From positions 77,528 to 141,527 of IMG/VR virus record IMGVR_UViG_3300028376_000003: DNA of 64,000 nucleotides; one strand, 5' to 3'. This document shows, one piece after another, positions 11,817 to 29,506 of this stretch (its first letter is position 1; the number at the start of each line of letters is the position of its first letter). The DNA comes from a virus. Below the pieces are notes generated by a model. That model ran no database searches. It was not told where the DNA came from and worked only from the letters and a program-made list of their open reading frames with translations. Position numbers and translations under genes: made by a program.

Positions 11817-11951
11817 ATCATATATATTAAAATAATATCTTTGTTAATTATATCTTAAAAATAGTGTGTTAAATTAATACATTTCATATATTTGTATAAT
11901 AAATATCAAAAGAGACAAAACTTTTTTAATATATAGTATATAAACATAAAT

Positions 11952-12024
11952 CGCGGGGTAGAGCAGTAGGTAGCTCGCTAGGCTCATAACCTAGAGGTCG
12001 TTGGTTCGAGTCCAACTCCCGCTA
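11952..12024 (+). tRNA. tRNA-Met(CAT), initiator-like
   Basis: CGCGGGG start with unpaired 1:72; anticodon arm ctagg-CTCATAA-cctag; GGTTCGAGTCC. Confidence 0.9.
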
Positions 12025-12044
12025 CAAATAAATAAATAAATAAA

Positions 12045-12128
12045 ATGAATACTTTTACTAACATAGAATATTATTATGAAGAATCTGAACGAAAACGCTC
12101 GGCTAGTCTTTTGATGTCTATAATGTAA
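12045..12128 (+). CDS. Leader peptide 1 (MNTFTNIEYYYEESERKRSASLLMSIM)
   Basis: GAA TAT TAT TAT GAA GAA TCT GAA run upstream of a terminator and tRNA-Tyr/tRNA-Glu. Confidence 0.8.
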   Translation: MNTFTNIEYYYEESERKRSASLLMSIM

Positions 12129-12143
12129 ATTAAATTATAGTAT

Positions 12144-12181
12144 AAAAAAAACCCAGTCTAGTAATATAGACTGGGTTTTTT
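12144..12181 (+). terminator. Intrinsic terminator / attenuator 1
   Basis: ACCCAGTCTA-loop-TAGACTGGGT followed by a T tract. Confidence 0.85.
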
Positions 12182-12194
12182 GTTTTAAAAATAT

Positions 12195-12277
12195 GGGGGT
12201 AATATGGCACAGGTAGTCATGTCGGTCTGTAAAACCGATTCCGAAAGGTATTGTGGGTTCGAGTCCCACTACGCCCA
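12195..12277 (+). tRNA. tRNA-Tyr(GTA)
   Basis: tcggt-CTGTAAA-accga, long variable arm, T loop. Confidence 0.85.
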
Positions 12278-12287
12278 CTTAGTACAT

Positions 12288-12360
12288 GCTCCGTTCGTCT
12301 AGTGGACTAGGACCCCAGGCTTTCAACTTGGTAACGGGAGTTCAATTCTCCCACGGAGTA
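12288..12360 (+). tRNA. tRNA-Glu(TTC)
   Basis: ccagg-CTTTCAA-cttgg; acceptor stem pairs. Confidence 0.9.
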
Positions 12361-12442
12361 CTAGTTTTAATATTGTTTAAAATAGGATTATAATAATATA
12401 ATGCTTATATTTGCCTATTATTTAATTTTAAAAAGCTTTTAA

Positions 12443-12832: not shown

Positions 12833-12879
12833 TTTAAGAGGGAGAGTAAACTTTTAATATATAGTGTAATATAACAATT

Positions 12880-13102: not shown

Positions 13103-13176
13103 GCAGGTAACGCATAAGTGATGGTGCACTAGCCTTCCAAGCTAGAATAGAATCGGTTTGATCCCGATTACCTGCT
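13103..13176 (+). tRNA. tRNA-Gly(TCC)
   Basis: ctagc-CTTCCAA-gctag. Confidence 0.8.
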
Positions 13177-15970: not shown

Positions 15971-17206
15971 ATGAATAACACATCAATTATAGATTCATTT
16001 ACTGAGCTTAAGTCAGACAAAATGATTAATAAAATAGAGATAATGGAAATCCTAGACTCTGTTTTTAGATTTGAGTTTAGAAAAAAATATGATACAGATG
16101 AAAACTTTGATATAATTCTAAACCCAGATAACGGAGATTTAGAAATATGGCAAAACAAAATCGTTGTACAAGATGGCGAGGTTGAAAACCACAATACTGA
16201 AATAGAAATTTCAGAAGTTCTTAAGGTGGAGTCAGATTTTGAAATAGGGGAAGAATATCCACAAGAATTCAAAATATCAGAATTAGGAAGAAGATCTATA
16301 TTAAGTTTAAGACAGAATCTAAAGGCTAGAATAAAAGACTACGAAAATAAATCAACAATAGAGAAGTTTGAAGATATGATTGGATATATTTTCAATGCCG
16401 AAGTCCATCACATAAAAAGAAATATGGTTATATTACTAGATGATGAGGGTATTGAAATTTGTTTACCAAAAGATAATCAGATACCTGGTGAGTTTTACAG
16501 AAAAGGTGATACAATATCATTTGTGGTAGAAGAAGCTGAAATTAGAAACAATAAGCCATACATTATTGCATCAAGAACATCAAGTAAGTTTCTAGAAAGA
16601 ATAATGGAACAAGAAATACCTGAAATATTCGATGGTCTAATAAATATAAAGAACATAGTTAGAGTACCTGGTATTAAAGCTAAGGTAGCAGTGGAAACAT
16701 ATGATGATAGAATTGATCCTGTTGGAACTTGTGTTGGTAGTAGAGGAAGTCGAATAATGGCAGTTACTAGAGAGCTAAATGGTGAGAGTATAGATATCAT
16801 AAGCTACACAAATAATATGGATTTATATATAACTAGGTCGTTAAAACCAGCCGTTGTTAAATTTATAAAGGTAGAAGATGGTAAAGCTGACGTTCATTTA
16901 AATGGTGAAGATATTGGTAAGGCTATTGGTAAGAAAGGTTCTAATATAAGATTAACTAGCTTACTTACTGGTCTAGAAATAAATCTTATAAATGATGAGC
17001 AAGCTACAGAGGAAGATATAGATCTTATGGAATTTTCTGATGAAGTTGATTTATGGGTAATAAATGAATTTAAAAAAGCTGGTATAGATACTGCTAAATC
17101 ATTACTATCTTATGGTTTTAGTGAACTTGTAAATATGACAGATTTAGAGGATGTGACTATTGAGAAGATAATAAAAATAATCAAACAAGAATTTGTTGAT
17201 AGTTAA
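15971..17206 (+). CDS. nusA: Transcription termination/antitermination factor NusA
   Basis: N-terminal domain, S1, KH domains (EIPEI, IDPVGTCVGSRGSRI, AIGKKGSNIRL). Confidence 0.95.
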   Translation: MNNTSIIDSFTELKSDKMINKIEIMEILDSVFRFEFRKKYDTDENFDIILNPDNGDLEIWQNKIVVQDGEVENHNTEIEISEVLKVESDFEIGEEYPQEFKISELGRRSILSLRQNLKARIKDYENKSTIEKFEDMIGYIFNAEVHHIKRNMVILLDDEGIEICLPKDNQIPGEFYRKGDTISFVVEEAEIRNNKPYIIASRTSSKFLERIMEQEIPEIFDGLINIKNIVRVPGIKAKVAVETYDDRIDPVGTCVGSRGSRIMAVTRELNGESIDIISYTNNMDLYITRSLKPAVVKFIKVEDGKADVHLNGEDIGKAIGKKGSNIRLTSLLTGLEINLINDEQATEEDIDLMEFSDEVDLWVINEFKKAGIDTAKSLLSYGFSELVNMTDLEDVTIEKIIKIIKQEFVDS

Positions 17207-25039: not shown

Positions 25040-25120
25040 GCCTTAGTAGTCCCGATTGTCTTCTAAACAATTAAGGGTAATTGGAAGCTGAAAATATAGG
25101 TTCGAGTCCTATCTAGGGTA
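25040..25120 (+). tRNA. Non-canonical tRNA-Arg(TCT)
   Basis: Acceptor gccttag/ctagggt, attgt-CTTCTAA-acaat, normal T arm; no D arm at the usual position. Confidence 0.7.
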
Positions 25121-29432: not shown

Positions 29433-29506
29433 CGAGAAGTGACTAAGGTTATAAGCACGGGTGCATTGGAGGCATCAGTTAGCAGGTTCGATTCCTGTCT
29501 TCTCGA
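29433..29506 (+). tRNA. tRNA-Pro(TGG)
   Basis: ggtgc-ATTGGAG-gcatc; weak D arm. Confidence 0.75.

Follow-up and report, generated by a model that had tools for sequence, protein, structure and literature searches.

A ribosome-mediated (leader-peptide) transcription attenuator probably gates two tRNA genes, tRNA-Tyr and tRNA-Glu, on a large phage contig. This reading was reached without expression data and rests on a leader ORF rich in Tyr and Glu codons, an intrinsic terminator placed directly ahead of the two tRNA genes, an alternative RNA fold that competes with that terminator, and the behavior of equivalent elements in relatives. The window analyzed, a 64-kb stretch, is the final part of a 141.5-kb contig with 28.7% G+C, and its closest public DNA is a 635 kb record of an uncultured megaphage. 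The window contains genes for an endolysin, a NAD-dependent ligase, a ClpB-like ATPase and a NusA homologue, and the locus described here, attenuator 1, is one of four attenuators.

Organization of the locus and its leader

On the + strand the locus runs in the order tRNA-Met, A-rich spacer, 27-codon ORF, hairpin with U-run, tRNA-Tyr and tRNA-Glu. The parts and their geometry, as observed in the window or in predicted folds, are:

11887–11894, + strand: candidate Bacteroidetes-type −7 promoter box (TAnnTTTG), 58 nt 5′ of tRNA-Met; a pattern match to the consensus only, with the transcription start unmapped
11919–11951, + strand: promoter-like motif common to attenuators 1 and 2; function inferred
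11952–12025, + strand: initiator-like tRNA-Met(CAT), found by ARAGORN and by Rfam at 62.7 bits
12026–12044, + strand: A-rich spacer of 19 nt from tRNA-Met to the leader ATG, without a promoter element
12045–12128, + strand: leader ORF of 27 codons, from the ATG at 12045 to the TAA ending at 12128; ORF start conserved in relatives
12066–12089, + strand: regulatory codons 8–15, GAA TAT TAT TAT GAA GAA TCT GAA (Glu, three Tyr, two Glu, Ser, Glu)
12102–12124, + strand: 5′ strand of the antiterminator (region 2), predicted from masked folds, with its core GCUAGUCU at 12102–12109
12118–12140, + strand: central hairpin whose loop holds the stop codon of the leader, predicted from folds
12134–12162, + strand: region 3, the antiterminator partner, which includes the terminator 5′ arm, predicted from folds
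12146–12186, + strand: intrinsic terminator with a 15-bp stem (12146–12160/12167–12181), a 6-nt loop and a U-run to 12186
12195–12278, + strand: tRNA-Tyr(GTA), putatively the first gated gene, 8 nt past the U-run; found by ARAGORN, below the Rfam threshold
12288–12361, + strand: tRNA-Glu(TTC), putatively the second gated gene; found by ARAGORN and by Rfam at 55.6 bits

The Rfam alignment of tRNA-Met displays features of an initiator tRNA, including a C1-U72 mismatch, A11:U24, A73 and two out of three G-C pairs at the base of the anticodon stem. A preliminary description of the window, made from its letters alone, had placed an fMet-like tRNA upstream of the leader and therefore beyond the reach of attenuation, an arrangement that we find both here, where tRNA-Met ends 19 nt before the ATG, and in most relatives. 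There, tRNA-Met is nearly always 5′ of the Tyr/Glu leader, in one of two layouts. The first, with a 70–190 nt spacer between tRNA-Met and leader, has a TAnnTTTG box 28–47 nt before the ATG, and a box at this distance from Tyr/Glu leaders is found in many relatives; in the second, which occurs in five separate sequence groups including that of the window, tRNA-Met is only 16–24 nt from the leader and there is no such box. The exclusion of the initiator tRNA from the switch makes sense, as stalling during elongation cannot report on an initiator tRNA. The first of the two downstream genes, tRNA-Tyr, has a long variable arm. The fourth position of its acceptor stem is mismatched (G-G), which counts against the proposed reading, and its best Rfam alignment, below gathering thresholds, is to the long-arm tRNA-Sec model. 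Rfam additionally identified three tRNA-like genes that ARAGORN had missed (13103–13176, 25040–25120 and 29433–29506), which lie in gated clusters.

Leader 1 is most likely part of the tRNA-Met transcript, given that a motif search revealed no promoter-like element in the 19-nt spacer and that both candidate promoters are 5′ of tRNA-Met. One of these, the TAnnTTTG box, is also present approximately 94 nt 5′ of leaders 3 and 4, again as a pattern match. The other, in which a TATAAT-like box comes after AAC-TTTT-ATATATAG, has just two copies in the 141.5-kb contig, one ahead of tRNA-Met (11919–11951) and one ahead of leader 2 (12849–12879); related motifs were found 5′ of the leaders of relatives. 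No promoter motif was detected in the gap of only 8 nt between the terminator and tRNA-Tyr. The combination of a strong terminator with no room for a promoter before tRNA-Tyr implies that tRNA-Tyr and tRNA-Glu are made only by read-through.

Leader codons 8–15 had been singled out as a Tyr/Glu run ahead of tRNA-Tyr and tRNA-Glu, and GAA or TAT indeed occupies seven of these eight positions. This is the one 8-codon window with at least seven Tyr/Glu codons in the entire contig, when all six frames of its 141.5 kb (~283,000 windows) are considered, and it is the purest Tyr/Glu run that we have seen. The codon run together with the terminator is thus an observation far from chance. Among 42 leaders of the Tyr/Glu type, variation at the regulatory codons is almost all synonymous, and the spacer codons that follow vary freely. 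The start and frame of the ORF are kept in nearly all of 85 pattern matches, the exceptions being chance matches without tRNAs.

Natural frameshift or early-stop variants of the leader occur in relatives L150, L155, L127 and L188, where the ORF stops just past the regulatory codons or shifts frame, and where the sequences of the antiterminator and of the hairpin in the stop region are kept. Retention of these RNA elements indicates that the distal leader acts as RNA and not as peptide. A link between GAG codons and tRNA-Glu(CTC), both of which are absent from the window and present in four relatives, did not resolve into a clean rule, because many relatives use GAG without a CTC tRNA in the stretch examined.

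Competing folds and ribosome position

The terminator hairpin has a predicted folding energy of −21.9 kcal/mol (z −7.76, ViennaRNA); it is missed by a simple terminator scan, as the A-run and U-run lengthen the stem. Region 2 begins 12 nt past the last Glu codon, a spacing like that in the rest of the family. A candidate antiterminator with imperfect pairing had been proposed at about 12101–12112, and we located it there, with the core (12102–12109) pairing to 12155–12162 through seven pairs and one U-U mismatch, compared with eight perfect pairs in the family. In the alignment, this core is out of register with the family core, lying 3 nt upstream of it. Taken alone, the core duplex has an energy of −7.3 kcal/mol, no better than shuffled sequences (p = 0.14). 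The full antiterminator fold, spanning 12099–12166 and comprising the core, U-run/A-run pairs and the central hairpin, reaches −10.3 kcal/mol (z −2.53), an energy matched by 3 of 200 shuffles. The absence of any alternative fold able to compete with the terminator would have refuted an attenuator at this locus; the 12099–12166 fold is such a competitor.

Folding with the ribosome-covered portion masked, the check that had been suggested for this element, gave the expected dependence on ribosome position. With the transcript folded as far as the 3′ arm and a ribosome on the Tyr/Glu codons, the terminator 5′ arm is predicted to be paired upstream with a probability of 0.57, against 0.22 with the ribosome at the stop codon and 0.28 without a ribosome. 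The corresponding family means are 0.69 (stalled), 0.50 (stop codon) and 0.55 (no ribosome), so that attenuator 1 responds to ribosome position more sharply than the family average. In the modeled geometry, a ribosome that stalls at the final Glu codon has its leading edge at ~12099, just 5′ of the core. Pairing between region 1 and region 2 is predicted for untranslated RNA; this fold does not outperform shuffled sequences (z −0.96), and the pairing is absent from many relatives.

At equilibrium the terminator always wins, with −25 vs −10 kcal/mol and hence a difference of ~15 kcal/mol, just as it does in attenuators of the classical kind, which means that the switch must be kinetic. Estimated refolding barriers for attenuators 1 to 4 are 10.8, 8.2, 4.1 and 6.9 kcal/mol, attenuator 1 having the highest. 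The preliminary description had ranked attenuator 1 as the weakest of the four switches, and this is accurate for its core duplex (−7.3 vs −7.8, −14.4 and −15.8 kcal/mol) but not for its full hairpin, which at −10.3 kcal/mol can be set against −9.7 kcal/mol for attenuator 4. With a weak core, a full hairpin like that of attenuator 4 and the highest barrier, attenuator 1 is not clearly the weakest. Rfam searches returned no family match for the attenuator and, at gathering score or E ≤ 1, no T-box match at the locus.

These energies also bear on whether the family is real but copy 1 has decayed, its weak antiterminator leaving termination nearly constitutive and tRNA-Tyr and tRNA-Glu being supplied by basal leak or through a general termination factor, for example the NusA homologue encoded by the phage. 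Decay of this kind is supported by a core duplex indistinguishable from shuffles, by its U-U mismatch, in contrast to the perfect eight-pair helix of the family, and by the presence of the NusA homologue 3.6 kb downstream. It is hard to reconcile with a full hairpin that beats chance and matches the energy of that in attenuator 4, with the highest estimated refolding barrier of the four, with a response to masking sharper than the family average, or with a codon run that is not only intact but the purest observed. On this evidence we consider decay unlikely, without being able to set it aside. Our confidence in leader-peptide attenuation is accordingly high for the family and somewhat lower for the proposition that copy 1, weaker as it is and untested in function, still switches.

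The NusA homologue (15971–17206, + strand) contains NusA N-terminal and KH domains (E 1e-23 to 1e-24) and is encoded 2.6 kb 3′ of the second tRNA cluster. NusA promotes both hairpin pausing and intrinsic termination, and for this reason the phage homologue could tune these attenuators.

Leaders and tRNA clusters in relatives

Relatives were collected by scanning viral contigs for the terminator core and subsequently by a metagenome scan that added 68 loci. A generic screen of every fetched locus then yielded attenuators with other terminator cores, and it is this set on which the class-level tests were performed. Leaders from the viral-contig scan lie directly ahead of tRNA clusters and mirror them in their codons: QQQQQ is found before three tRNA-Gln genes, YYKQYYYK before Lys-Lys-Tyr-Lys tRNAs, a Ser/Arg leader before Ser/Arg tRNAs, and a His/Lys/Phe/Trp leader before the matching tRNAs. 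When the match was scored as the fraction of codons 5–20 whose amino acid has a downstream tRNA, leaders averaged 0.476 with their own cluster, against 0.194 when set before the clusters of other leaders (p ≤ 1e-5 by permutation; 39 classes on phage-like contigs).

The RNA elements are matched in the same way. Each leader has, 9–12 nt past its last regulatory codon, an antiterminator segment resembling the 3′ arm of its own terminator; the duplex formed by a leader with its own terminator 5′ arm has a mean energy of −9.3 kcal/mol vs −6.8 kcal/mol with other arms (p = 5e-5), and in cases of differing terminator cores the cognate leader is in the top two of 30. In the alignment of the 42 Tyr/Glu-type leaders the antiterminator helix is paired in 92.8% of cells, vs 23–38% in controls with a slid partner. 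It was as a Tyr/Glu leader attenuator that the locus had originally been described, and this identification is upheld by leader codons that track the tRNAs, segments that match their own arms and a helix that is conserved.

Covariation across relatives was also observed, although within the Tyr/Glu family its true extent is limited to the distal arm, the terminator core having been fixed by the search pattern. In the family alignment the central hairpin that spans the stop codon shows 87.8% pairing, its closing pair has 17 double-sided changes, and in strain L134 an A-to-G change leaves one pair of this hairpin as G-U. In the antiterminator columns of alignment A1, two changes that look compensatory were rejected, as they arise because the group containing the window is out of register. 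If the window core is instead placed 3 nt upstream, two pairs become compensatory relative to the family core, but this requires a shift and not column homology, and we regard it as suggestive only. The only close relatives of the window (L165, L188, L134 and L127) are 98.7–99.5% identical to it and uninformative on constraint.

Attenuators 1 and 2 had been noted to share a terminator stem, from which duplication followed by retuning was suggested. The core ACCCAGTC/GACTGGGT is common to both, as is the ORF start, and several relatives have in their place a single merged leader, IEAIGYAYEAG, which precedes Tyr-Glu-Ile-Gly-Ala tRNAs and joins the specificities of the two, in agreement with that suggestion.

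These comparisons weigh against two further explanations. In one, the translated leader does sense Tyr/Glu decoding, but its output is the processing or stability of the tRNA precursor, for example via nuclease access. The location of the leader on a tRNA-mRNA-tRNA transcript, for which processing is needed anyway, makes this conceivable; what it leaves unexplained is why each leader contains a copy of the 3′ arm of its own terminator, and why the distance from the last regulatory codon to this copy is conserved at 9–12 nt, and we judge it very improbable. Slighter still is the case for a hairpin that does no more than close the tRNA-Met unit, as a constitutive terminator or insulator, with the ORF a chance occurrence in AT-rich DNA, since, common as short ORFs are at 29% G+C and insignificant as the ribosome-free leader fold is, this account already fails on comparative sequence data, given a codon run unique in ~283,000 windows, leader compositions that track the tRNA sets of relatives, an ORF start and frame conserved in nearly all 85 pattern matches, and downstream tRNAs without a promoter of their own.

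Outside viral contigs, the leader-terminator pattern produced seven matches in genome contigs, one of them a real attenuator, which is located on a 2-kb contig assigned to the bin of an uncultured Bacteroidetes MAG. The remaining six, one of which lies in a Seonamhaeicola chromosome, are ordinary terminators without a tRNA in the vicinity. Apart from the short MAG-binned contig, the pattern scan gave no evidence for the system in cellular genomes.

Several tRNA clusters in relatives have unusual members. L161 and L182 each contain, ~516 nt past the terminator and within the Tyr/Glu tRNA cluster, a tRNA with anticodon CTA, an amber suppressor labeled ‘Pyl’ by ARAGORN, which hints at stop-codon recoding in part of the phage group. 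Unusually long or interrupted tRNA-like genes are present in the Tyr/Glu clusters of L043 (9000–9400) and L001 (3680–3830), and these may carry introns or insertions.

Proposed mechanism and relation to known attenuators

We propose the following mechanism, in which translation of the leader, its coupling to transcription and the response to charged-tRNA limitation are all inferred. Transcription would begin upstream of the initiator-like tRNA-Met, which would therefore always be produced, and the same RNA would run on into the 27-codon leader, where ribosomes would load at the A-rich spacer and translate. When Tyr- and Glu-tRNA are plentiful, the ribosome would reach the stop codon, melting the 3′ portion of region 2 along with the central hairpin; the terminator would then form, RNA polymerase would stop 8 nt before tRNA-Tyr, and only tRNA-Met would be made. 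When either charged tRNA is scarce, the ribosome would instead stall on codons 8–15 with its leading edge just before 12102, allowing region 2 to pair with the emerging region 3 and thereby to occupy part of the terminator 5′ arm. With this arm captured, the polymerase would read through into tRNA-Tyr and tRNA-Glu, and the supply of the two tRNAs is thereby predicted to be under negative feedback.

The closest counterparts are the enterobacterial attenuators trpL, hisL, pheL, leuL, thrL and ilvL, which likewise combine a short ORF, a run of regulatory codons and an intrinsic terminator, and in which an upstream segment competes for the terminator 5′ arm and ribosome position picks the fold. 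Energies are similar as well, the trp antiterminator and terminator having roughly −11 and −20 kcal/mol. The phage locus differs from these attenuators of enzyme genes in that it gates tRNAs, so that the sensor reports on the molecule being controlled and not on an amino acid; in its presence in a phage, on a leader transcript headed by a tRNA; and in the position of its antiterminator, which is inside the ORF and bridged by a hairpin over the stop codon. Like the multivalent leaders thrL (Thr/Ile) and ilvL (Ile/Val/Leu), the phage leader samples more than one amino acid, here Tyr and Glu and up to five in the merged leader of relatives, but its codon set is the set of downstream tRNA genes and changes along with the cluster. 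The pheM leader of pheST, which mediates leader-peptide attenuation of phenylalanyl-tRNA synthetase, offers a parallel in controlling a gene of the translation apparatus; there the product is a protein enzyme, whereas the phage locus gates the tRNA itself. T-box riboswitches also make transcription read-through responsive to the state of a specific tRNA, but they bind uncharged tRNA directly and have no ORF, in contrast to the multi-codon ORF and lack of a T-box match at the phage locus. A full-text literature search found no published account in which tRNA genes are controlled by a leader peptide.

The usual view of phage tRNA genes is that they are constitutive helpers for codon usage or replacements for tRNAs lost to host defence systems. 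We favor, with moderate confidence, a different picture for large phages of Bacteroidetes-type hosts, in which the supply of their own tRNAs is run by a codon-resolved, demand-driven circuit: transcription of each block of tRNA genes requires slow decoding of a test peptide composed of the codons of that block, every move of tRNA genes between blocks is met by retuning, and the initiator tRNA is kept outside. Proposed jointly with this, and held to the same degree, is that in several lineages the initiator tRNA forms the 5′ end of the leader transcript. If true, classical attenuation would extend from amino-acid operons to tRNAs and to phages with Bacteroidetes-like promoters. The elements are ~140 nt long and modular, with many natural variants of different specificities, which puts the idea within direct reach of reporter assays, and the elements could double as sensors of tRNA availability. 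For the phage itself, such a circuit would measure decoding speed for each codon family and make tRNAs on demand, allowing it to respond to the depletion or cleavage of host tRNAs during infection.
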